From a plasmid, in NCBI RefSeq assembly GCF_057098645.1, contig NZ_JBXSPU010000004.1: a DNA stretch of 11,304 bases; one strand, written 5' to 3'. Position 1 is the stretch's first letter. Each line of letters starts with the position of its first letter. This document shows positions 342-11,304 of the stretch, piece by piece. The notes beneath the pieces are model-generated. The model saw only the letters and a program-made list of their open reading frames with translations. It had not been told where the DNA came from and did not search any database. Position numbers and translations under genes: made by a program.

Positions 342-536
342 TTATGGTTCCGTGCCGTACTGCGCTTCAAAGTGTGTCTGTATGCTGTTACCGAGTTCTT
401 CCGCCAGTTCGTGCAGTCGTTCGCACATGGCGGCCTGTTCGTCTGCATCCAGTGCATCCAGTTTTTCGAGCAACGTCAGGCTCTGGCTTTTGATAAATCG
501 CGCCATGTTGAGCGCGGTCTGCTGCTGTTTGTTCAC
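342..536 (-). CDS. rop: Rop/Rom, RNA I-RNA II pairing modulator
   Basis: 64-aa ORF MNKQQQTALNMARFIKSQSLTLLEKLDALDADEQA... aligns along its length with the 63-aa ColE1/pMB1 Rop (MTKQEKTALNMARFIRSQTLTLLEKLNELDADEQA...); it sits at the expected place beside bom. Confidence 0.9.
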   Translation of the reverse strand: MNKQQQTALNMARFIKSQSLTLLEKLDALDADEQAAMCERLHELAEELGNSIQTHFEAQYGTEP

Positions 537-756
537 GTTCTCCCTTCTCCGTTACTGGTGTTTACGTCCGGCTGTGCGTCACCTGGTCATCACGCTAGGT
601 GACGTCACTGAAAATTATCACACAAGCCCCGTCGTGTGTGGGCTGCGCGACATTAACACCCCGTGACGCTTATTTTTTGCTGAATATGTGCGCGATTTTC
701 TGTCTGCGTTGTGTGCAGTTGTCGTCATAAACATGAACGTTCCGCCGGTTCCTGAT

Positions 757-791
757 GTGCGTCACTTTGACGTTTTGACAAAGTGACGCAC
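757..791. repeat. Perfect 13-bp inverted repeat with 9-bp spacer (operator-like palindrome)
   Basis: gtgcgtcactttg-acgttttga-caaagtgacgcac read directly; contains TTGACG and TTGACA hexamers. Related GTGACG palindromes at 575-582 and 599-608 (gtgacgtcac). Confidence 0.45.
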
Positions 792-1158
792 GGGAGGTGC
801 TTGCGCAAACCCGCGAATAACGGCGTTTACCGCGTGATTTTTTTACATCTGACAACGTGACCCGGCGTGATGGCCAGTTCTGGCCAGAGACGTTCGCGGG
901 GTGTCGGGGCGCAGCCATGACCGGGTGGCGTTTGTCCGGTCGTGTGTGCGCGGTCCGACAAATGCACATCCTGTCCCGTCCCGTTTTTCGCTCGGTTTTT
1001 ATTGATTACCGGACAGACGAACCCGGATTGCCATATTGCGAAAATCACGTTAAAACGATTACGAGCGTGCAGTTGGGCTGATATATCAACAGTCATGCCA
1101 ATATGTATTAACCCGACAGGCCGCTCTTTTTAATTCCAATAAAAATATAAATACGAGT

Positions 1159-1353
1159 ATGAATCAGGACAAAGCAATTTATTTAGAAAATAAATATTTT
1201 TCACCCGCAAACGAAGCTGTCAGACTGGAGCGTGAAGGCGATTACATTGGAGCATGGAAAAAATGGAATGATGCGCTTCATTATGCCAAAGGAGAAAATA
1301 TAGGTTGGTGTATAGCCAGAGCTGAATATTGTAAAAAGACAGGCCGGTTTTAA
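1159..1353 (+). CDS. Hypothetical small protein (64 aa), possibly a helical TPR-like fold
   Basis: ORF with AT-rich upstream region and A/T-rich codon usage unlike the flanking GC-rich DNA; only a weak Shine-Dalgarno. No family recognised. Confidence 0.35.
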   Translation: MNQDKAIYLENKYFSPANEAVRLEREGDYIGAWKKWNDALHYAKGENIGWCIARAEYCKKTGRF

Positions 1354-1367
1354 TTCTGGCGGGGTTT

Positions 1368-1386
1368 CAAAGGGGCGCCCCCTTTG
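1368..1386. other. GC-rich stem-loop just after the 64-aa ORF stop
   Basis: caaagggg-cgc-cccctttg, an 8-bp perfect stem with 3-nt loop; no following T-tract, so not a canonical intrinsic terminator. Confidence 0.3.
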
Positions 1387-1489
1387 GCACCTCGACGTAT
1401 CAAAATGCACCAGCATTTTGTATACAGTCGGTCATGTGCCTCCAGGATTTACCATCAAAAACGCCCCTGTAGTTAATCCTGAATCAAGG

Positions 1490-1584
1490 TATAACTAAGA
1501 TATAATTAGCGTATAACTAAGGCATAACTAAAGTATAACTAACTTGGTGTGCATATAATTAACATATAACTAATGTATAACTAA
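1490..1584 (+). repeat. Array of about eight direct repeats of TATAACTAA phased at 11 bp (iteron-like)
   Basis: Copies start at 1490, 1501 (tataattag), 1512, 1523 (cataactaa), 1534, 1554 (tataattaa), 1565 and 1576; one degenerate slot near 1545. Confidence 0.7.
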
Positions 1585-1770
1585 CGGTTCACCAACGGAT
1601 CGCATGTAGTAGACGCTACATAAAAAATCCTGAAATGGAGGATTCGTCATAAAGAGATTCTTTTTTTTAGCGTTCTGATGCAGAACAGGGCAAACACCGC
1701 AAAAATGATGAAAAACTGATTAACCATACTGTCTGTATTCTGAATGAATTACGAAGCATAGCGATAAATT

Positions 1771-1797
1771 AAAAAATCCCCCTGGATTACAGGGGGA
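1771..1797 (-). terminator. Intrinsic-terminator-like hairpin plus U-tract (minus strand)
   Basis: Plus strand aaaaaa-tccccctg-gatta-caggggga: 8-bp perfect stem; on the minus strand the hairpin is followed by TTTTTT. Confidence 0.4.
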
Positions 1798-1904
1798 AGC
1801 TATCAGAGTTTGAGTAATGAGAAATATTATTTTGGAGAGAGCATCACAAATGCGCTCTTTTCCAATCTGCCGTAACCATCGGCAAAAGACAATCAGGACA
1901 GGCG

Positions 1905-1931
1905 AAAAAATCCCCCTATATGGCAAGGGGG
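1905..1931 (-). terminator. Intrinsic-terminator-like hairpin plus U-tract (minus strand)
   Basis: Plus strand aaaaaa-t-ccccct-atatggca-aggggg: 6-bp GC stem; minus-strand T6 follows. Confidence 0.4.
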
Positions 1932-2028
1932 TGTCAATGAGGACATGGCAATTGTGAGTTTTGTGTGTGTTTTATGTGTTGCAGTTTGCAACGTCAGAAA
2001 TTTGCCGTAGTTCGTCATGAGAGACAAC

Positions 2029-2070
2029 AAAAAAATCCCCCGTGACTGGTGGAGGCCAGGGCAAGGGGGG
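2029..2070 (-). terminator. Intrinsic-terminator-like imperfect hairpin plus U-tract (minus strand)
   Basis: Plus strand aaaaaaa-tcccccgtgactgg...ccagggcaagggggg; CCCCC/GGGGG and CTGG/CCAG arms; minus-strand T7 follows. Confidence 0.3.
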
Positions 2071-2279
2071 TAGCAAATGCCTGAATAATTTTCGTAGTTT
2101 TGATATACCCATCGTTGCAACCGCAACGGGATGAATTTGCCGCAGTTGTGCGCGAAAAACAATCCTGATTCCGGGACAGGATGTGTAATCGTATAACCGC
2201 GCACGCACGGCTATGCGATTACCACCTGGTCAGGGCTTTGCCCCGACACCCTCGACACCGTTCCCGCGATACGATAGAA

Positions 2280-2483
2280 GGGGTTCTAAGCCGGAAACCC
2301 AGAAAATTCCGTCACCAAAGCTAGTAATCGACAGATTTGCATGACGTTGAATAGGTGACGGGTTATGTGACGATATTTGGTGTCGAAATCGTTGTTTCAG
2401 TGACAGTCACTCAATCGATCGTTTGTGTGACACTCCCGTAAAAACTTGTCGCAGAAAAATCCAGGTTTCCGGCCGGGAACCCC
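2280..2483. mobile_element. 204-bp miniature element with Tn3-family-like terminal inverted repeats and 5-bp target duplication (TIME-like, non-autonomous)
   Basis: Left end GGGGTTCTAAGCCGGAAACCCAGAAAATTCCG; right end read inward GGGGTTCCCGGCCGGAAACCTGGATTTTTCTGCG. Both start GGGGTTC like the transposon IRs at 7516 and 11303. Flanked by identical TAGAA at 2275-2279 and 2484-2488. No ORF inside. Confidence 0.6.
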
Positions 2484-2571
2484 TAGAACATCAGGGCGCG
2501 TTTCCGGGTAAACGCATGTTAATGACCGGGAATTCATTGATCAGGGACCGGAGACGCGCTACAAAACTCCT

Positions 2572-2713
2572 GCGCGTTTCTGGCATCAACTGACCATGGG
2601 GATGGTTTGGCAGTAGCAGCAAGCGCCAGAAACGCGCTCAAAACGCCTCTGGCGGCAAAACCATTGCCCGATGCAAAAAAGTGCGTTACAAAGCCTCTGA
2701 GCGCGTTTCTGGC
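2572..2713. repeat. Nested inverted copies of GCGCGTTTCTGGC forming long-range hairpins, followed by a T-tract
   Basis: gcgcgtttctggc at 2572-2584 and 2701-2713; its reverse complement at 2624-2636. The pair 2624-2639 / 2698-2713 is a perfect 16-bp inverted repeat. T6 at 2716-2721. The 15-mer CTGAGCGCGTTTCTG recurs at 3466-3480 inside cer. Confidence 0.5.
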
Positions 2714-3097
2714 GTCTTTTTTGTTGCTGTGTCGCTATACTCGTTGTCAGATTCGCGCTCAATCATCACTGATTAATCTGCGCTTATCCTTCGACTGATC
2801 ACGCTGGTATTTTTTGACAACCGGTTCCCATGAAAACGCCAGACGGGAACCGTCATCCGCACCCTCTGACATGCTGGGGATTAAAAATCCCTGTGCCGCA
2901 CAGCCGGCGTTGCATAAAATTCCGCTCTGCGATGAGTATTGTTTAATCAAAAATCCCCTCGTTTTCTCCAGAAAAACGCGAGTCTGTTCTCATGCCCCGG
3001 ATGCCCACACCCCACGCAAAACCAACTTTTTTCTGATTTGCTTTTTAAATCATGTTGTTATGGTTTGAAAAATATATTTTCTTATTCAGATTTATAC

Positions 3098-3270
3098 AAA
3101 AGCGAGTCGTCGGCGACTACTGGATGATTCGGCAACGAGTCGTCGGTGATTTATCGATGACTCAACACACTGTCTCCCTGGTGTTCAGAAAAAGCGAGTC
3201 GCCAGAGAGTCGCGAGGAAAAATACTGGATGACTCGCTGATGGCTCCCGGGGTGAATCGCTCACGACTCG
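3098..3270. repeat. Cluster of GAGTCG / CGACTC-containing direct and inverted repeats
   Basis: (G/A)CGAGTCGTCGG at 3101-3113 and 3134-3146; ACTGGATGA(T/C)TCG at 3118-3130 and 3224-3236; GAGTCGCC and GAGTCGCG at 3196-3213; CGACTCG at 3264-3270. Confidence 0.5.
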
Positions 3271-3299
3271 TCTGTAACTACTGTCTGATTTCTTCTCAT

Positions 3300-3516
3300 C
3301 AGGGCTGAAAACGTCCGAAAATGCGCCTTATGGGAATCAGGCGCGCCCAAACCGATCGCCATTCAGTTTCATGCATAGTCATGCAGTGCCATGAAAACAA
3401 TCCTGACGTATTTTTCCGGTTTACCCGGGGGGAAAACATCTCTTTTTGCGGTTTTTGCGTCAGAATCGCGCTGAGCGCGTTTCTGCGGTGCGTACAATTA
3501 AGGGATTATGGTAAAT
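3300..3516 (+). other. cer-type multimer resolution site (accessory sequences plus XerC/XerD core)
   Basis: Core at 3487-3516 reads GGTGCGTACAA-TTAAGGGA-TTATGGTAAAT, which is the ColE1 cer XerC arm, 8-bp central region and XerD arm as I recall them. About 190 bp of upstream accessory sequence includes an ARG-box-like segment near 3360-3385. Left boundary approximate. Confidence 0.8.
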
Positions 3517-3524
3517 GTCTCCCT

Positions 3525-3947
3525 TTACTGCCTGCCCTCGTAGCCATCAAGATAAACCGCAGAAATCGTGTCAGCCAGCAGCTTCATTTTTTCCGGTGAT
3601 GGCATATCACCGTTCGTGTATTTTCTGCCAGCAAAGGTTGTTGTGCTCCGGAGTGAGTGAAAAAATTTTTCTGAGTGGAATTCTTTTACACGTTGCTGTG
3701 CCGTTTCTGCTGATACTCCGGCTGCTTTGTCTTTCATCCCCATATCCCGGAACTGCTGAAAGAACGGGTGCATCATACGTATGGTGTCTGCTTTCTGGGT
3801 GTGGAAGTTAGGATCAAATCCATCATCTGAAGCATAAACATAATGCCGGGTATGTCGTTCCAGGCTGGTCTTTGGTGTGCATCCTGTAAGAGCTATTGTT
3901 GCTGTTATCAGAGGTATCAGAAGCAGCCTGACAGCGGCAGATCTCAT
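3525..3947 (-). CDS. Putative lipoprotein (140 aa), function unknown
   Basis: N-terminus MRSAAVRLLLIPLITATIALTGC has a signal peptide and lipobox L-T-G-C; AGGAG Shine-Dalgarno 7 nt upstream on the minus strand. No family recognised. Confidence 0.6.
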   Translation of the reverse strand: MRSAAVRLLLIPLITATIALTGCTPKTSLERHTRHYVYASDDGFDPNFHTQKADTIRMMHPFFQQFRDMGMKDKAAGVSAETAQQRVKEFHSEKFFHSLRSTTTFAGRKYTNGDMPSPEKMKLLADTISAVYLDGYEGRQ

Positions 3948-4068
3948 AAAAATCTCCTTGCGTTTTTAATCTTGATACTCAGGGAGTTATATCTCCGAAG
4001 AGTATCTCTTATCATACGTCGGTTTACTCCCAATGTGATTTGATGGTCAATGAGTCAGGAATAATCCC

Positions 4069-4347
4069 GTGAAAAAATGTGTGCCAGTCCTGCTTTTTAG
4101 TGTTCTTTCTGCTTCGGTTGCCAGTCATGCGGACAGCAATGTTTTTCAACAAAAGGCCGAGAAGACAAAAAACGGCATTGTTGCGGATGTTAATGCCAGA
4201 CAGAAAATGTTCAGTAACAGACTGAAGATACAACTTCAGATCGATGAGTTGAGAGCAGAGCTGGCTGGCACCAGAGATGCCCAAAAAAGAGAGGATTTGC
4301 GTAAAAAACTGGAGTCTCTGGAGCGGCAAAAGAAATCCTTACGCTGA
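4069..4347 (+). CDS. Putative secreted/periplasmic coiled-coil protein (92 aa, GTG start)
   Basis: MKKCVPVLLFSVLSASVASHA has a signal peptide with an AxA-like cleavage motif (SHA-D); the mature part is highly charged with heptad-like K/E/L/R pattern. AGGAA 7 nt upstream of the GTG. Confidence 0.5.
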   Translation: MKKCVPVLLFSVLSASVASHADSNVFQQKAEKTKNGIVADVNARQKMFSNRLKIQLQIDELRAELAGTRDAQKREDLRKKLESLERQKKSLR

Positions 4348-4656
4348 TGGGGGCGTATTTTCCCCGGTTTCTTCCATAACCTTTTTACCGTTCAGATATT
4401 TACGGGCGAGGCGAATGCGTCTTGCCTGGTATACCGCCGAGTAAGCCTGGGTGGGATTCACACCGTTACTGATTTCACTGACCACATGACGCTGATCAGC
4501 CAGTGTCAGCGTGTAAACCTGTTTCTGGATGAGGTCACGGGCTTTGTCATGCTCATATCCGGCAGCAACCAGGGTGTCGAGAAGTCGCTTGTCTGTTTTG
4601 TTCAGTTTATGGCGGGGAGATTTGCTCACATCGTTCTCCGTTTTTTCATGATCCAA
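4339..4656 (-). CDS. Hypothetical small basic protein (105 aa) with a possible helix-turn-helix
   Basis: ORF divergent from the colicin promoter; the segment VVSEISNGVNPTQAYSAVYQARRIR looks like an HTH (turn at NG, then a recognition helix). No family recognised. Confidence 0.45.
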   Translation of the reverse strand: MDHEKTENDVSKSPRHKLNKTDKRLLDTLVAAGYEHDKARDLIQKQVYTLTLADQRHVVSEISNGVNPTQAYSAVYQARRIRLARKYLNGKKVMEETGENTPPSA

Positions 4657-4761
4657 CAGTTTTATATCTCATCCTGATTTGCTCCGGTGTTCTGTTTCGA
4701 CGTTCTCAATGTCTGCCTCCTTGTAGTGTGATCTTTATTGCAAAAATGAAAATCCATGTTC

Positions 4762-4825
4762 TTGACATGGGCAATGCTGAGTAGTAGGTTTTCACTGTAC
4801 ATAAAACCAGTGGTTATATGTACAG
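4762..4825 (+). promoter_or_regulatory. SOS-regulated colicin promoter with two overlapping LexA boxes
   Basis: -35 TTGACA at 4762-4767; overlapping LexA boxes CTGTACATAAAACCAG (4795-4810) and its partner tggttatatgtacag (4811-4825), each CTG-N10-CAG, in the classic colicin arrangement. Confidence 0.8.
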
Positions 4826-4873: not shown

Positions 4874-6346
4874 ATGGATAAAGTCACTGATAATTCTCCA
4901 GATGTGGAGAGCACAGAATCTACTGAGGGGTCATTCCCAACCGTTGGGGTTGATACTGGCGATACGATTACAGCGACGCTTGCAACTGGAACTGAAAATG
5001 TTGGTGGAGGCGGTGGAGCATTTGGTGGGGCCAGTGAAAGTTCTGCTGCGATACATGCAACCGCTAAATGGTCTACCGCGCAGTTGAAAAAACATCAGGC
5101 TGAACAGGCTGCCCGTGCTGCTGCGGCTGAGGCAGCATTGGCAAAAGCGAAATCTCAGCGTGATGCCCTGACTCAACGTCTCAAAGATATTGTTAATGAC
5201 GCTTTACGTGCTAATGCCGCCCGTAGTCCATCAGTAACTGACCTTGCTCATGCCAATAATATGGCAATGCAGGCAGAGGCTGAGCGTTTGCGCCTTGCGA
5301 AGGCAGAGCAAAAAGCCCGTGAAGAAGCTGAAGCAGCAGAAAAAGCGCTCCGGGAAGCAGAACGCCAACGTGATGAGATTGCCCGCCAACAGGCTGAAAC
5401 CGAGCATTTGTTAGCTATGGCTGAGGCTGCTGAGGCTGAAAAAAATCGACAGGATTCTCTTGATGAAGAGCATCGGGCTGTGGAAGTGGCGGAGAAGAAT
5501 CTGGCTGAGGCTAAAGCTGAACTGGCGAAGGCTGAAAGCGATGTACAGAGTAAGCAAGCGATTGTTTCCAGAGTTGCAGGGGAGCTTGAAAACGCTCAAA
5601 AAAGTGTTGATGTGAAGGTTACCGGATTTCCTGGATGGCGTGATGTTCAGAAAAAACTAGAGAGACAATTGCAGGATAAGAAGAATGAATATTCGTCAGT
5701 GACAAATGCTCTTAATTCTGCTGTTAGCATTAGAGATGCTAAAAAAACAGAAGTTCAGAATGCTGAGACAAAATTAAAAGAAGCTCAGGATGCGCTTGAG
5801 AAGAGTCAGGTAAAAGATTCTGTTGATACTATGGTTGGGTTTTATCAATATATAACCGAACAATATGGAGAAAAATACGCAAGAATTGCTCAGGATTTAG
5901 CGGAAAAGTCTAAAGGAAAGAAAATTAAAGGTGTTGATGAAGCTTTAGCTGCATTTGAACAGTATAAAAATGTACTGGATAAGAAATTCAGTAAGGTTGA
6001 TAGGGATGCTATTTTTAATTCTTTAGAGTCTGTTAATTATGATGAGTTATCTAAGAATTTAACGAAGATATCAAAGTCGCTTAAAATCACTAGTCGAGTA
6101 TCTTTTCTATATGATGTTGGTTCTGATTTTAAAAATGCAATAGAAACTGGTAACTGGCGTCCTTTATTTGTCACGCTGGAGAAAAGTGCGGTAGATGTAG
6201 GTGTTGCAAAAATTGTGGCATTAATGTTTAGTTTTATTGTCGGCGTGCCTCTTGGTTTCTGGGGGATTGCTATTATCACAGGTATTGTTTCTTCTTACAT
6301 AGGGGATGATGAGTTGAACAAGCTTAATGAATTGCTAGGTATTTAA
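4874..6346 (+). CDS. cta: Pore-forming colicin of the E1 family, colicin 10-like (490 aa)
   Basis: Gly-rich N-terminal region, then [20 protein letters not shown]...[13 protein letters not shown]...LAHANN...ERLRLAKAE matching colicin E1 as I recall it. C-terminal channel domain ends [21 protein letters not shown]...LGI (E1: GIWGIAIVTGILCSYI...EVLGI). The length and the TonB-box-like DTITATL at residues 30-36 fit colicin 10; the symbol is tentative. Confidence 0.9.
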
Positions 6347-6633
6347 TTTCTCTTTAGAGAGTAATATATGAAACTTGGCAATCCTACTGGGATTGCCATT
6401 AATAAATAAAACAATGCAGATAACTTGCATAAATACCAGGGCTCTTTTTTAAATTTTGTATTTTCTTTGATATATCTAGATATGGTTAATTTAGAGTATG
6501 GATATAGCAATACATGTATTGACGATATAAAGACAAATAACAAAGGAGTGTTATCATGGTCGTTAAATATTAAAATAAGAATCCAGGGTATAAGTGATTC
6601 AGGTAAATTATGTAGGTAGTATTTTAAATGCAT
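6343..6633 (-). CDS. cti: Colicin immunity protein, E1-type integral membrane protein (96 aa)
   Basis: Convergent with the colicin gene and overlapping its stop. [10 protein letters not shown]...[22 protein letters not shown]...[14 protein letters not shown] parallels the colicin E1 Imm protein (MSLRYYIKNI...[22 protein letters not shown]...LVLAIPFGLLGLFI). Confidence 0.85.
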
Positions 6634-6662
6634 AAGTATTTTTACTTTTGTTGGAGAGGGAT

Positions 6663-6794
6663 ATGAAAATAATAATTTTTCTAATTACAATATTATTCTT
6701 GTCAGGATGTCAAGCAAACTATATTCGTGATGTACAAGGAGGAACCGTTGCGCCATCTTCGTCTTCTGAACTGACGGGGATCGCGGTTCAGTAG
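6663..6794 (+). CDS. ctl: Colicin lysis (bacteriocin release) lipoprotein, 43 aa
   Basis: Not in the ORF track. Translates to [43 protein letters not shown] with lipobox LSGC; the mature part is essentially identical to the ColE1 Kil mature sequence as I recall it. GGAGAGGG Shine-Dalgarno upstream. Confidence 0.85.
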
Positions 6795-6802
6795 AAAAGA
6801 TC

Positions 6803-6828
6803 AAAGGATCTCTTGAGATCCTTTTTTT
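6803..6828 (+). terminator. Intrinsic terminator after the lysis gene, overlapping the RNA II promoter -35
   Basis: aaaggatct-cttg-agatccttt: 9-bp perfect stem followed by TTTTTTT; same arrangement as in pMB1/ColE1. Confidence 0.7.
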
Positions 6829-6841
6829 CTGCGCGTAATCT
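6813..6841 (+). promoter_or_regulatory. RNA II (replication primer) promoter
   Basis: TTGAGA at 6813-6818 and TAATCT at 6836-6841 with 17-bp spacing, positionally equivalent to the pBR322 RNA II promoter. Confidence 0.55.
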
Positions 6842-6848
6842 GCTGCCT

Positions 6849-6957
6849 GTAAACGAAAAAACCGCCTGGGGAGGCGGTTTAGTCAAAGGTTAAGTCAGTT
6901 GGGGAACAGCTTAACCGGGTAACTGGCTTCAGCAGAGCGCAGATACCAAAAACTTGT
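6849..6957 (-). ncRNA. RNA I antisense copy-number regulator
   Basis: Antisense to the 5' ~110 nt of RNA II; its 5' end corresponds to the complement of cagataccaaaaacttgt (pBR322 RNA I begins ACAGTATTTGGTATCTG); three-stem-loop region. Ends approximate. Confidence 0.65.
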
Positions 6958-7478
6958 CCTTCTAGTGTAGTCAAAATCAGGCTGATACTTCAAGAACTCT
7001 GTTACTAACTTATAAATCTCGCTCTGCTAACCCGGTTACCAATGGCTGCTGCCAGTGGCGTTAAGTCGTGTCCTTTCCGGGTTGGACCCAAGAGAACAGT
7101 TACCGGAGAAGGCGCAGCAGTCGGGCTGAACGGGGGGTTCCTGCATACAGCCCGGCCCGGAGCGAACTGCCTAAGTCGCCCCGAGATACCAGAAGACGTG
7201 AGCTATGAGAAAGCGCCACGTGTCCCGCAAGGGAGAAAGGCGGAAAAGGTATCCGGCAATCGATATGGCGGGAACGTGGGGGCGCAGGAGGGAGCGATTC
7301 ACCGGAAACGGTGATGATCTTTAAGCCACGTCGGGTTTCGCCACCGCTGGCGGATTTCATGGTTGAGTCGGAAGACTCCCACAGATGCACCTAAAAAGTG
7401 TCTGTTTTGTGAAGTCCGTCAGGGGGGCGGAGCCTATGGAAAAAGCGCCTCCGGCGCGGCCTTTCGGGGTTTTCGTTT
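6849..7478 (+). ncRNA. RNA II primer precursor through the replication origin of a ColE1-type replicon
   Basis: Collinear with pBR322 RNA II/ori as recalled (ggtaactggcttcagcagagcgcagatacc..., gctatgagaaagcgccacg..., gtcaggggggcggagcctatggaaaaa..., ctcacatgttctttcc), but with many substitutions and an extra segment near 7330-7410. Ends approximate. Confidence 0.7.
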
Positions 7479-7515
7479 CTTGCTCACATGTTCTTTCCGG
7501 CGTTATCCCCTGATT

Positions 7516-7553
7516 GGGGTTCCGTGGGAATTTCTGCGATAACACCCGCTAAG
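7516..7553 (+). repeat. Left 38-bp terminal inverted repeat (IRL)
   Basis: GGGGTTCCGTGGGAATTTCTGCGATAACACCCGCTAAG. Confidence 0.85.
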
Positions 7554-7699
7554 CGATTCCTCCCTGACGGAAATCACTTGTTTTCCGTCAGGTCCTGCAG
7601 TTGAAGAAAATTGAATCCATAAATCTGTGATTTTTTGCGTGACAAACCCTGTCGGAATGAGAAACTGTACGGAAACTTCAATTTTAAGGTTTGTCGTAC
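7554..7699 (+). promoter_or_regulatory. res site (resolvase binding subsites) and tnpR promoter region
   Basis: 30-bp palindrome cctgacggaaa-tcacttgt-tttccgtcagg at 7563-7592, plus further TGTCGGAA / TGTACGGAA / TGTCGTACA half-sites at 7648-7700, between IRL and tnpR. Confidence 0.55.
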
Positions 7700-8323
7700 A
7701 TGTTGATTGGTTATATGCGGGTATCAAGCAATGATGAACGTCAGTCAGTTTCTTTGCAGCGTGATGCGTTGATTGCTGCTGGAGTGGATCCCCGGCATTT
7801 ACATCAGGATCATGCTTCAGGTGCTCGTGATAATCGCCCGGGACTTAAGTCCTGTCTCGCTGAACTTCGCGAAGGTGATGTACTGATAGTCTGGAAACTG
7901 GATCGACTTGGTCGTTCACTCTCACATTTGCTCCGAATTATTGAAGACCTGAAAATTCGTGGTATTGCTTTCCGATCATTGACTGAATCTATTGATACAA
8001 CAACGCCACACGGCTCGTTCCTCTTTAACCTTTTTGGCACGCTCGCGGAGTACGAAAGAACACTTATCACAGAACGCGTTAATGCTGGTCTGGCTGCTGC
8101 TCTCCGGCGGGGGAGAAAAGGCGGAAGGCCACCGGCGATAGATGCTGAAAAGGTTGATCAAATCCTCGCAGCTCTGGAAGGAGGTGCCAGTAAAGCGTCA
8201 GTATGTCGCGCATTCAGTGTGCCACGCTCAACGCTCACCGATACTCTACGACGAATTGGCTGGGCCGGACCTGGGGGGCGTAATCTGACAACGGATCAGA
8301 GCAATGTCATTTCTCGACTCTAA
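7700..8323 (+). CDS. tnpR: Serine recombinase (resolvase), Hin/Gin invertase-like
   Basis: MLIGYMRVSSNDERQ...RPGLK...GDVLIVWKLDRLGRS...GIAFRSLTESIDTTTP...GRKGGRPPA parallels Gin (MLIGYVRVSTNDQ...GDTLVVWKLDRLGRSM...GINFRSLTDSIDTSSP...GRIGGRPPK) as recalled. I place the start at ATG 7700 (AAGG about 10 nt upstream); the ORF track starts at an upstream TTG, 7691. Confidence 0.85.
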   Translation: MLIGYMRVSSNDERQSVSLQRDALIAAGVDPRHLHQDHASGARDNRPGLKSCLAELREGDVLIVWKLDRLGRSLSHLLRIIEDLKIRGIAFRSLTESIDTTTPHGSFLFNLFGTLAEYERTLITERVNAGLAAALRRGRKGGRPPAIDAEKVDQILAALEGGASKASVCRAFSVPRSTLTDTLRRIGWAGPGGRNLTTDQSNVISRL

Positions 8324-11270
8324 ATCGTACGATACGCTTTTTGGATTACCTGAACTTTATGAGGATGCACTTCCCCGGTTTTCGCTCTCCTGCGAGGATA
8401 TTGCATTCGCCAGAACTCATCGTCGATCTCATAACCGTCTGGGTTTTGCCATTCAGCTTGCACTTGTCCGTGATCTCGGTCGTACACTGCGTGCAGGAGA
8501 GATTCCCCCGGAGGCTGTTATCACCGTTGTTGCGGAACAACTGGATATTGACCCTGCTGTTTTTACACTTTACGCACAACGTGAGGAAACCCGCCGGGAA
8601 CATGCCCGCGAAATAGTTTCGGCTTTGGAGCTTCGTTCCGTCCGGAGTAGCGATTACAGAATGCTCATTATCGCGGCTACACGCGAAGCAGCAACCACCG
8701 AAAAAGGACTGCCGATCACCAGAGCAGTTATCAATAAGCTGAAGGACCAGAAGTTACTTGCCCCTGCTCCGGCACAACTCATCCGTCTGGCAATGGCGGG
8801 CCGGGCGGCTGCCCGTCGCCTTTCTTATCGGGAACTCATCAGGGATCTGAAACCTTCATCCATTAGCGCTCTCGAGCAGTTGCTTACCGAACGAGTCGGA
8901 GAAAAGAGCATTTTAGGCTGGATAGCTGAAGCGCCGGAAGGCGTGAAACTCAAGAATCTTAAGGGGTTAATTGCCAGGCTGGAGGTATTACGAACAGCGG
9001 CAATCTCCGATGAGCAACGTAAACGGATTCATGTAAACCGTTACGGTATTATTGCCCGGGATTCTCGCGTTTTACATGCGCGTGAAATACAACGAATGGC
9101 ATCCGAACGCTGTCATGCCACGCTGGTAGCCTTTGTTATTGAAAAGCAGGCAGCAATTACAGATCTGGCAATTGATATGTTCTGCAAATTGATTGGCAGC
9201 ACGAGGCGCAGAGCAGAGATAAGCCAGAAAGAGCGTCGTCTGAAAGCCGCTGAAGTACTTGAAGTCGTAGCTCAGGATCATATTAAGTTGGGACGGGCTC
9301 TCCTGGCAGCACGTGACGGTAATACTGATATTGAATCTGTAATAACAGCATCACTCGGCTGGGAAGGTTTGATTGCCAGTATGGAGGCTGCAGCTTCGGT
9401 GGCATCTTCCCATCACTGTTCTGAACTGGATGAACTTATCGGACGACAAAAATCATTACGTAAGCTTGGACGACTCATTTTCAGCGCTTTTTCTTTCAGA
9501 GCTTTTCGCCCGGATGATAGCGTTTTGTTGGCGATTGGGTATTTGCAGGCGTTCTATCATGGCCGAAAATTACCCAAACAAATTCCGCTCGATTTTATGT
9601 CCCATAAATGGCGACGTCGTGTCATCCATGGAGAAAATACCGATCTGCAGGCGTGGGAAGTCGCCGTATTCGTTCATTTGCGGGAACGCCTGAAAACAGG
9701 TGACATATGGGTTGATGGTAGTCGGGCCTGGCGTAGTTTTGAGGACTACCTTCTTCCTCACCATGTTTTCGGGCAGATGCGGGCAGAATCCCGGCTGGGA
9801 CTTGCCATTCCGGACAACTTTGCTGAATGGCGGGCTGAGCGAACCACCACACTCAACGCAAAACTGAAAGCGCTGGCAAAAGCTGCTTCGGAGAATGCCA
9901 TACCCGATGCAGAACTTTCCAGCAGAGGGTTGTCTGTGTCTCCGATTCGCGAAGAAGAGAGCGACAAAATTAAGGCTCTCAGCCGTAAACTCTACATGCT
10001 GGTACCACGCATCAGAATTACCAGTTTGCTGGCAGAAGTTCATAGCTGGACCAGTTTTCTTGATTGTTTCACCCATTATCGCACCGGGGAACAGGCGGAA
10101 GATGAAGCTGCACTTATGGCTGCGATCCTTGCCGATGCGACGAATGCGGGAGCAGAACGGATGGCGCAGAGTTCCCGGGGTGTCACCATTCACCAGATGA
10201 TGGTAATGATGGATCGTCATTTACGCACTGAAACCTATGCGTCTGCCACATCAGTTCTGGTCGATGCGCAACAGGAACATCCTTTTGCTGCTATATGGGG
10301 GGATGGGCATGTGTCATCCTCGGACGGGCAGTTTTTTCCTGCGGGTGGACGAGGAGAAGCCAGCCTCGAATATAACGCCAAATACGGCAAACGACCTGGC
10401 GCGTCGATTTATGGTTTTTTATCGAACCGTTTTGCATCCTTTTTTTCCAGAATGATTCAGGCCTCTGAAAGCGAGGCTCCCTACGTACTTGACGGCTTAC
10501 TTCATAACGAAAGTTCTGTGGTAATTCATGAGCATGCCACCGATACAGCCGGTGCGACTGAAACAACATTTTCAATGTTTCACTCTTTTGGTTACAGACT
10601 CATACCCCGTATTCGCAACCTCGGCAGTCGCAGGTTGTACGTTATTTCCCCCTCAGAGGAATATAAACCACTTGATGCCCTGATCGCCGGAAAGGCCAAA
10701 ATGGAAGTAATAGAACAGCACTGGGATGAAGTTCTGCGGCTTAAGGCCTCGATCGGCGCTGGTCTGGTACCACCATCGGTAATACTGAAAAAGCTGGCAG
10801 CATCTCCGAGACAAAACAGGCTCAATCTGGCCCTGCGTGAAATGGGACGTATTGAACGCTCAATTTTTATCTGTGACTGGTTGCTTGACACTCGGTTACG
10901 TCGCAGATCACACGCAATCCTCAACAAAGGCGAAAGCCGCCATGCACTTGCCCGCGCTATTTTTCTTCACCAACTGGGCGAATTCCGGAACAGGGCTGCC
11001 GAGACAATGGCTCACAGGGCATCGGGCCTCAACCTTGTTGTTAATGCAATAATTCTGTGGAACACGGTCTATCTCAGTCGGGCTGTTGATTACATTCGCA
11101 GCCAGGGGATCATTATACCGGAAGAGCTCTTGTCCAGTGTATCACCACTACCATGGGGTCATATCTCGCTCACTGGAGATTACCTGTGGAACGAAATTGA
11201 CCATCCCCTTGAACGATACAGGCCACTTCGTACTAATCGCTTCAATCCAAAGAACTTCACTTTTCCTTAG
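8304..11270 (+). CDS. tnpA: Tn3-family DDE transposase (988 aa)
   Basis: HNRLGFAIQLALVRDLG, NKGESRHALARAIFLHQLGEFRNR and NAIILWNTVYLSRAVDYIRSQG mirror Tn3 TnpA motifs (HNRLGIALQIGCVRFLG, NRGESRHAVARAICHGQKGEIRKR, NAVVLWNTIYMQAALDHLRAQG). Overlaps the tnpR 3' end by 20 nt. Confidence 0.93.
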   Translation: MSFLDSKSYDTLFGLPELYEDALPRFSLSCEDIAFARTHRRSHNRLGFAIQLALVRDLGRTLRAGEIPPEAVITVVAEQLDIDPAVFTLYAQREETRREHAREIVSALELRSVRSSDYRMLIIAATREAATTEKGLPITRAVINKLKDQKLLAPAPAQLIRLAMAGRAAARRLSYRELIRDLKPSSISALEQLLTERVGEKSILGWIAEAPEGVKLKNLKGLIARLEVLRTAAISDEQRKRIHVNRYGIIARDSRVLHAREIQRMASERCHATLVAFVIEKQAAITDLAIDMFCKLIGSTRRRAEISQKERRLKAAEVLEVVAQDHIKLGRALLAARDGNTDIESVITASLGWEGLIASMEAAASVASSHHCSELDELIGRQKSLRKLGRLIFSAFSFRAFRPDDSVLLAIGYLQAFYHGRKLPKQIPLDFMSHKWRRRVIHGENTDLQAWEVAVFVHLRERLKTGDIWVDGSRAWRSFEDYLLPHHVFGQMRAESRLGLAIPDNFAEWRAERTTTLNAKLKALAKAASENAIPDAELSSRGLSVSPIREEESDKIKALSRKLYMLVPRIRITSLLAEVHSWTSFLDCFTHYRTGEQAEDEAALMAAILADATNAGAERMAQSSRGVTIHQMMVMMDRHLRTETYASATSVLVDAQQEHPFAAIWGDGHVSSSDGQFFPAGGRGEASLEYNAKYGKRPGASIYGFLSNRFASFFSRMIQASESEAPYVLDGLLHNESSVVIHEHATDTAGATETTFSMFHSFGYRLIPRIRNLGSRRLYVISPSEEYKPLDALIAGKAKMEVIEQHWDEVLRLKASIGAGLVPPSVILKKLAASPRQNRLNLALREMGRIERSIFICDWLLDTRLRRRSHAILNKGESRHALARAIFLHQLGEFRNRAAETMAHRASGLNLVVNAIILWNTVYLSRAVDYIRSQGIIIPEELLSSVSPLPWGHISLTGDYLWNEIDHPLERYRPLRTNRFNPKNFTFP

Positions 11271-11303
11271 CGTGTGTTATCGCAGAAATGCCCACGGAAC
11301 CCC
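11266..11303 (-). repeat. Right 38-bp terminal inverted repeat (IRR)
   Basis: Reverse complement reads GGGGTTCCGTGGGCATTTCTGCGATAACACACGCTAAG; differs from IRL at positions 14 and 31. Confidence 0.85.
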
Positions 11304-11304
11304 T

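Follow-up and report, generated by a model that had tools for sequence, protein, structure and literature searches.

A short open reading frame identified as the catalogued lysis lipoprotein gene of a colicin-5/K-type cluster on a ColE1-type plasmid

The open reading frame (ORF) at positions 6663-6794 of the window, which is the whole 11,304-nucleotide plasmid stretch analysed here, is with a probability of about 95% a known and already catalogued colicin lysis (release) lipoprotein gene belonging to a colicin-5/K-type cluster of a small ColE1-type colicin plasmid of E. coli. Judged by its sequence, the gene is real, functional-looking and fully known. Nothing in it is biologically new, the exact protein being present in RefSeq and on about 1,000 public contigs and the family and its mechanism having long been studied. 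A 60-codon ORF threshold nevertheless hides a functionally essential, lethal gene of a classic toxin system, and plasmids therefore need small-gene-aware calling.

Structure of the lysis gene

Elements of the gene, in window coordinates:
6653-6659, + strand, lysis-gene Shine-Dalgarno sequence GGAGAGG, with GGAG 6 nt before the ATG
6663-6794, + strand, lysis (colicin release) lipoprotein gene, supported by Pfam PF02402, RefSeq WP_077521118.1 and selection
6663-6707, + strand, signal peptide codons (15 residues)
6708-6710, + strand, Cys16 codon of the lipobox LSGC
6708-6791, + strand, mature lipopeptide of 28 aa (Cys16-Gln43), with the stop at 6792-6794
6803-6831, + strand, predicted intrinsic terminator of the lysis gene (with its stem at 6803-6811/6816-6824 and T7 at 6825-6831)

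The ORF extends from an ATG at 6663-6665 to a TAG at 6792-6794, comprising 132 nt that encode 43 aa plus stop. The ORF track available at the outset, with its cut-off of 60 aa, lists nothing at 6663-6794, and the shortness of the gene relative to the 60-codon limit is the sole cause of its absence. At a threshold of 20 aa the mechanical ORF becomes 6648-6794, a 48-aa frame opened by a TTG with the ATG five codons inside. An earlier note had described at this place a 43-codon lysis lipoprotein gene, below the track threshold and provided with a ribosome-binding site (RBS), a lipobox and a terminator, and each of these elements was recovered. The RBS is the Shine-Dalgarno (SD) sequence GGAGAGG, properly placed through its GGAG. 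The lipobox is formed by L13-S14-G15-C16, in agreement with the PROSITE-PS51257-style pattern, with the Cys at position 16; it follows an n-region that carries Lys2 and an uncharged hydrophobic core made up of residues 3-13. Small release-protein precursors measure about 43-52 aa and have a signal peptide ending [LVI][ASTVI][GAS]C, which corresponds here to 43 aa and LSGC. The residue at position +2 after the lipidated Cys16 is Gln17 and not Asp; under the Lol sorting rule, lipoproteins whose +2 residue is not Asp are directed to the outer membrane.

The predicted terminator starts 9 nt past the lysis stop and consists of a 9-bp stem, a 4-nt loop and the T7 tract. Its folding free energy is -17.4 kcal/mol (z = -3.5), and only one of 200 shuffled sequences folded as well. 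The terminator is kept in seven of the nine compared loci, including those of ColK, Col10, ColE1-like, cloacin-type and ColD plasmids, the copy described here differing from the compared loci by a one-base deletion in the hairpin loop.

Family assignment and conservation of the lysis protein

The 43-aa product matches Pfam PF02402 (Lysis_col) with 84.7 bits against a gathering cut-off of 27 bits (E = 3.9e-24). Residues 4-43 align with model positions 10-49 of 49, through the last position, and the unmatched start of the model corresponds to the variable signal peptide. This match, together with identity at 42 of 43 residues (98%) to the lysis protein of pColK-K235, bears out the assignment as a lysis lipoprotein. 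The protein is 86% identical to Ctl, the lysis protein of colicin 10, and 58-74% identical to the ColE1-like, ColD, ColE7, ColN and Klebsiella cloacin-type lysis proteins, while over the mature peptide it shows 100% identity to its colicin K and Klebsiella cloacin-type counterparts. The nearly invariant columns of the alignment are C16, Q17, N19, D23, V24, G26, G27, T28, P31, S32, S33 and G39. An identical protein is recorded in RefSeq as WP_077521118.1, "colicin release lysis protein", located at 6610-6741 of NZ_CP062882.1, the equivalent position, and also annotated at the equivalent position of pO104:H7_S1. At least 993 public contigs carry exactly this protein, and tblastn retrieves a relative from 1,397 plasmid records. 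A PDB sequence search returned no solved-structure relative. The NCBIfam search gave no match for the lysis or the immunity protein, the library having no model that recognises them, whereas Pfam settled both; for the lysis gene this gap does not count against the identification.

The lysis protein of pColK-K235 (WP_011264162.1; NC_006881.1 4490-4621) is likewise 43 aa long and has an identical mature lipopeptide. Gene order in that plasmid is the same (colicin +, cki -, lysis +), as is the downstream block of terminator and RNAII promoter. At residue 13 the pColK-K235 protein has Cys where the present one has Leu, and therefore the lipobox of the present protein is the canonical LSGC, whereas the CSGC of pColK-K235 fails the PROSITE-style rule. 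The SD sequences differ as well, GGAGAGGGAT here being stronger than GGAAAGAAAT in pColK-K235. Similarly, Ctl is a 43-aa protein of the same architecture, encoded alongside a 490-aa colicin with a Tsx/TonB-type N-terminus. The lysis proteins of ColE1 (Kil/CelA), ColE7 (Cel), ColD, ColN and the Klebsiella cloacin-type plasmids are also small prolipoproteins of PF02402 that share the mature core, which in the release-protein family ends with (A/S)PSS, and their genes too stand at the end of an SOS-induced colicin unit. In contrast, their signal peptides have 17-21 residues as compared with the 15 found here, and differ in sequence.

Substitution patterns were compared along the same gene. In the mature region (29 codons, Cys16 to stop), 95 of the 122 nucleotide differences from eight homologues fall at codon position 3, and against two Klebsiella genes these codons show 12-13 synonymous and 0 non-synonymous changes. 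Across the ORF, comparison with nine related plasmids gives 24 synonymous versus 11 non-synonymous codon changes, the latter clustering in the signal peptide and the upstream extension. Such counts indicate that the lysis gene is under strong purifying selection.

Two other readings of the frame were weighed. Translation could begin at the TTG at 6648, giving the 48-aa precursor reported by a mechanical ORF caller: this codon is in frame, no stop stands ahead of ATG 6663, and the same TTG is kept in the pColK-K235 and pO104:H7_S1 loci. This start is nevertheless very improbable. The TTG has no SD-like core 3-10 nt upstream, whereas GGAG lies downstream of it at the correct spacing for the ATG; initiation there would add L-E-R-D, and thus two acidic residues, to the n-region of the signal peptide; a conserved in-frame 5' extension is lacking from the colicin 10 and other lysis loci; and RefSeq calls the ATG start, with the family alignment beginning at M-K/R. 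It is likewise very improbable that the frame is a chance ORF or an inactive lysis-gene relic, like the 3' fragments found beside ColE1-type origins in some plasmids. The region is indeed AT-rich (GC 0.31 at 6401-6800), a composition in which stop-free stretches can arise, and at its 3' end the gene runs directly into a replicon-conserved block, so that fragments could travel with the origin. However, the gene is full length, with start codon, SD, lipobox and stop all intact, purifying selection on it is strong, and the exact protein, carried by at least 993 contigs, is encoded here beside an intact colicin gene.

Colicin gene and candidate SOS promoter

Features upstream of the lysis gene:
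4762-4790, + strand, candidate SOS promoter for the colicin and lysis genes (-35 TTGACA 4762-4767, 17-nt spacer, -10 TAGGTT 4785-4790)
4795-4825, + strand, two LexA (SOS) boxes with a one-base overlap (CTGTACATAAAACCAG 4795-4810 and GTGGTTATATGTACAG 4810-4825)
4874-6346, + strand, pore-forming colicin gene of 490 aa (Pfam PF01024, residues 306-487)
6343-6633, - strand, colicin K-type immunity gene (cki family) of 96 aa (Pfam PF17500 CKI, 186 bits)
6376-6398, + strand, 10-bp G+C-rich hairpin with no U-tract, 30 nt after the colicin stop

The lysis lipoprotein gene read from ATG 6663 lies on the colicin strand, 317 nt past the colicin stop, behind the promoter with two overlapping LexA boxes. 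These boxes are the sole CTGT-N8-ACAG-type match in the window. The segment 4542-4883 is 95% identical to the pColK-K235 region upstream of cka and into its first codons. In the cka promoter the LexA operators are arranged in tandem just 3' of the -10 element, and the boxes described here occupy the same position (PMC4482635). A search for a separate + strand promoter of the lysis gene gave 5 promoter-like matches against 5.7 expected, none of them convincing.

Over its whole length the colicin shares 92% identity with colicin 10; almost all of the differences lie past residue 300, residues 1 to ~300 having four substitutions. Over residues 168-490 it is 84% identical to colicin K, with four differences after residue 335. 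The last ~155 residues, which include the segment of divergence from colicin 10, match colicin K almost completely. Colicin K of pColK-K235 has 548 aa, whereas the colicin found here has 490 aa and a colicin-10-like N-terminus. The exact protein is present on 91 public contigs. These alignments show a protein that combines a colicin-10-like N-terminal two thirds with a colicin-K-like pore and immunity-specificity region. The fusion of an uptake region of colicin 10 type with a pore and an immunity of colicin K type is the pattern published for colicin 5, and we therefore infer a colicin of the colicin-5 type, this label deriving from published descriptions and the domain pattern. The primary paper for the colicin 5 cluster cfa-cfi-cfl is that of Pilsl & Braun 1995. 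Colicin 5 is dependent on Tsx, TolC and TonB and its immunity protein is Cfi (PMC9558359), and primers for colicin 5 cross-detect colicin 10 (PMC2995468).

Immunity gene and layout of the cluster

The immunity protein is 96% identical to Cki of pColK-K235 and 67% identical to Cti of colicin 10, and the counterpart gene of a sibling plasmid is annotated cki in RefSeq. The cluster had been termed a colicin-immunity-lysis operon in the earlier note. This description holds in that all three genes are adjacent, but not as regards the operon: in the three-gene nuclease-type operon the immunity gene shares the strand of the colicin and lysis genes, whereas 6343-6633 is encoded on the minus strand. 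The arrangement is therefore a colicin and lysis transcription unit with an embedded antisense gene. The same antisense layout is displayed by the pColK-K235, Col10, ColE1 and ColN loci, as is typical of pore-forming colicins, in contrast to the nuclease-type clusters (ColE7, ColD and cloacin-type), in which the immunity gene lies on the shared strand.

The segments ahead of the lysis gene were also folded. A T1 stem-loop stands ahead of the lysis gene in ColE7 (PMC2896534), whereas the lysis gene described here is preceded only by the U-tract-less hairpin at 6376-6398. The surrounding segment 6340-6425 folds with -18.1 kcal/mol (z = -3.0). This hairpin may act as a pause or attenuator site before transcription reaches the lysis gene; it falls within the 3' portion of the antisense immunity gene and may be no more than coding sequence. 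The lysis leader at 6590-6700 shows no significant fold (z = -1.6), and no ColE7-like T1 stem-loop is claimed directly 5' of the SD. Together with the GGGA that follows it, GGAGAGG provides two GGA motifs at the lysis SD, which by analogy could constitute a possible CsrA site; repression by CsrA at the SD has been demonstrated for cel of ColE7 (PMC2896534).

The start codons of the divergent immunity and lysis genes are 29 nt apart, and the immunity promoter must therefore overlap the lysis gene. A near-consensus minus-strand promoter-like site is present in the lysis coding region, consisting of TTGACA at 6713-6708, an 18-nt spacer and TGTAAT at 6689-6684. Its TTGACA is the reverse complement of the lysis Cys16-Gln17 codons, and the ColK and Col10 loci retain both hexamers. 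The TGTAAT element carries G at the second position of the -10, which is normally invariant.

Proposed mechanism of colicin release

By analogy with the characterised family, DNA damage would lift LexA from the colicin promoter, and transcription of the colicin gene would read across the antisense immunity gene into the lysis gene. At cka, IscR co-represses besides LexA (PMC4482635), and a similar co-repression may operate at the present colicin promoter. CsrA bound at the GGA-containing SD may damp translation of the lysis gene, as in ColE7. The precursor would be exported through Sec, lipid-modified at Cys16, cut by signal peptidase II and directed through Lol to the outer membrane, where the mature lipopeptide would activate phospholipase A (OmpLA), leading to a leaky envelope, release of the colicin and death of the producer. 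Acylation, globomycin-sensitive processing, OmpLA activation, quasi-lysis and colicin release are ascribed to this protein because it is nearly identical to characterised family members. The family mechanism (SOS induction, export, acylation, phospholipase A and release) and the Lol sorting rule are both summarised in PMC2896534.

Predicted terminator and possible link to replication

Features downstream of the lysis gene:
6813-6841, + strand, inferred RNAII primer promoter of the ColE1-type replicon (-35 TTGAGA 6813-6818, 17-nt spacer, -10 TAATCT 6836-6841)
6853-6954, - strand, RNAI antisense copy-number control RNA (Rfam RF00106, 74.3 bits against a gathering threshold of 47, full length)

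The hexamers TTGAGA and TAATCT are those that we take, from general ColE1/pMB1 knowledge, to form the RNAII promoter. The position of RNAI (6954-6853) places the RNAII start near 6849, and with this placement of the promoter its -35 element sits inside the lysis terminator hairpin. A block comprising the terminal ~25 codons of the lysis gene, the terminator and the sequence as far as the RNAII promoter is nearly identical in the ColK, Col10, ColE1-like, cloacin-type and ColD plasmids. The terminator would limit read-through into the adjacent RNAII promoter. We regard as tentative and rather doubtful the wider proposal that the lysis gene is more than a passenger at the cluster edge and is built into two other control circuits, through an immunity promoter on its complement and the RNAII -35 in its terminator, and that the conserved block could serve as a joint for swapping colicin modules between replicons. 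In that event, the lipobox codons and the expression of the immunity gene would impose mutual constraints, with convergent transcription damping expression of the lysis gene, and the copy number of the plasmid could respond, during colicin induction, to SOS-induced read-through or to folding of the terminator.

RefSeq annotates a "replication initiation protein" of ~47-52 aa in the RNAII primer region of ColE1-type plasmids, and in the present backbone this frame is flagged as frameshifted (record 6952-7093). With tblastn it is recovered here in two minus-strand frames, 7146-7063 and 7070-7020, within 7005-7146. The annotation at 7005-7146 is probably an artefact over a non-coding primer RNA region.

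ORF-poor island and search for further small genes

Features of the island:
1159-1353, intact ANR-family regulator gene within a small-plasmid remnant
1689-1769, + strand, remnant of a 75-aa gene (last 27 codons only)
2974-2762, - strand, remnant of a Rep gene (C-terminal ~70 codons only)

The ORF-poor island spans about 540-3465, and its segment 887-2974 is homologous to Rep-type plasmids of 3.3-3.9 kb (NZ_CP053243.1, NZ_JBUXMJ010000006.1 and NZ_CP046544.1). By this homology, the island is a decayed small Rep-type plasmid remnant fused into the Col backbone, together with cis-acting sites. Pfam gave no match for ten island ORFs of at least 60 aa, and an Rfam search of 500-4800 (E <= 1) returned one sub-threshold snoRNA match only, attributable to chance.

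That other genes of fewer than 60 codons might be hidden in this island had been suggested in the earlier note, with ORF calling at 20 codons and RBS scoring as the check. The small-gene scan covered all ORFs of 20-59 aa on both strands and scored SD cores 3-10 nt upstream of the start, with shuffled sequences as controls. An RBS score built on the duplex energy with the anti-SD RNA favoured G-rich stretches and discriminated poorly, and was replaced by SD-core motifs with a spacing rule. The scan gave 16 SD-supported ORFs, five of them with ATG, as compared with 23.4 +/- 5.3 (ATG 7.8 +/- 3.0) in composition-matched shuffles, a yield at or below chance. The suggestion finds no RBS, family, database or conservation support, and it is unlikely that the lysis gene has several unannotated companions of fewer than 60 codons, located chiefly in the island. 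Such a view could draw on the fact that one real gene was hidden by the 60-aa threshold, on PGAP annotating nothing across 1354-3524 in sibling plasmids, and on three minus-strand terminator-like hairpins at 1771-2055 that hint at short transcription units. However, the lysis gene alone has a family, Pfam giving no match for six SD-supported small ORFs; five of the six candidates are absent from a collection of 15 billion proteins, and the sixth was called once, as "hypothetical"; Rfam places no family in the island; and the island is the decayed remnant described above, with truncated genes. Comparison of 127 small ORFs across nine related plasmids singled out the lysis gene alone, the others outside annotated genes showing no synonymous excess, a test that is weak in the island, where relatives are 87-98% identical. 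The few further ORFs whose synonymous counts resemble those of the lysis gene all lie across annotated genes, read in a different frame or from the complementary strand. Rop and ANR, the two other short genes, are encoded by ORFs of 64 codons (63 and 64 aa when read from ATG) and were already over the 60-aa threshold. The lack of any sign of further small genes in the ORF-poor island is a useful negative result.

The hairpins at 1771-1797, 1905-1930 and 2030-2055 (minus strand) have the form CCCCC...GGGGG followed by T6-7. They are spaced 125-134 nt apart in repeated units of ~130 nt, one unit more than in related small plasmids. At 1771-2055 they are accompanied by no credible ORF or promoter and match no Rfam family, and they may be short non-coding transcription units or an origin-related structure.

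An array of 11-bp direct repeats (minus-strand consensus TTAGTTATAYN) lies at 1468-1600, just downstream of the ANR gene. It comprises two blocks of about 3 and 5-7 copies with 9 nt between them, and is absent from one related small plasmid that still carries Rep. The spacing of one helical turn per repeat suggests a putative phased protein-binding site, iteron- or centromere-like.

Three oriT/bom-like sequences at 224-256, 899-978 and 2172-2251 share the core GGGTGTCGGGGC..GCC.TGACC. Those at 899-978 and 2172-2251 form an 80-nt inverted pair, 75% complementary, that flanks the ANR gene. The copy at 2172-2251, which we take to resemble an IncI1/R64-type nick region, has matches in over 3,000 plasmid records, among them conjugative plasmids of ~90-110 kb. 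A tblastn search with MbeA, MbeB, MbeD and MobC revealed no mobilisation genes in the window, and the oriT/bom-like sequences probably explain its typing as "mobilizable" despite the absence of mob genes.

Convergent gene pair upstream of the colicin promoter

4069-4347, + strand, hypothetical gene of 92 aa, in convergent overlap with 4339-4629
4339-4629, - strand, hypothetical gene of 96 aa, in convergent overlap with 4069-4347

The two genes are located between exc2 and the colicin promoter and are conserved in ColK-, Col5- and Col10-type plasmids (WP_000710675.1 and WP_000047032.1). Neither product belongs to a Pfam or NCBIfam family.

Whole plasmid and position of the transposon

7515-11304, Tn3-family transposon of 3.79 kb (tnpR 7691-8323, tnpA 8304-11270)

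Except for the transposon site, the window corresponds to NZ_CP062882.1 (E. coli O157:H16, pig faeces; both 11,304 bp), from which it differs by 6 SNPs. The transposon is inserted here ~100 bp downstream of the ColE1-type origin, with the target duplication TGATT at the junctions 7510-7514 and 1-5. In NZ_CP062882.1 it interrupts the colicin gene, with the duplication AAAAA (compare 5311-5315 of the window). Thus, the colicin gene is intact here and a split pseudogene in NZ_CP062882.1. The window might be an artificial rearrangement of that record, as its origin-transposon junction occurs in no complete E. coli genome record; against this, each of the two transposon sites shows a proper target duplication of 5 bp, and 91 contigs carry the intact colicin protein.
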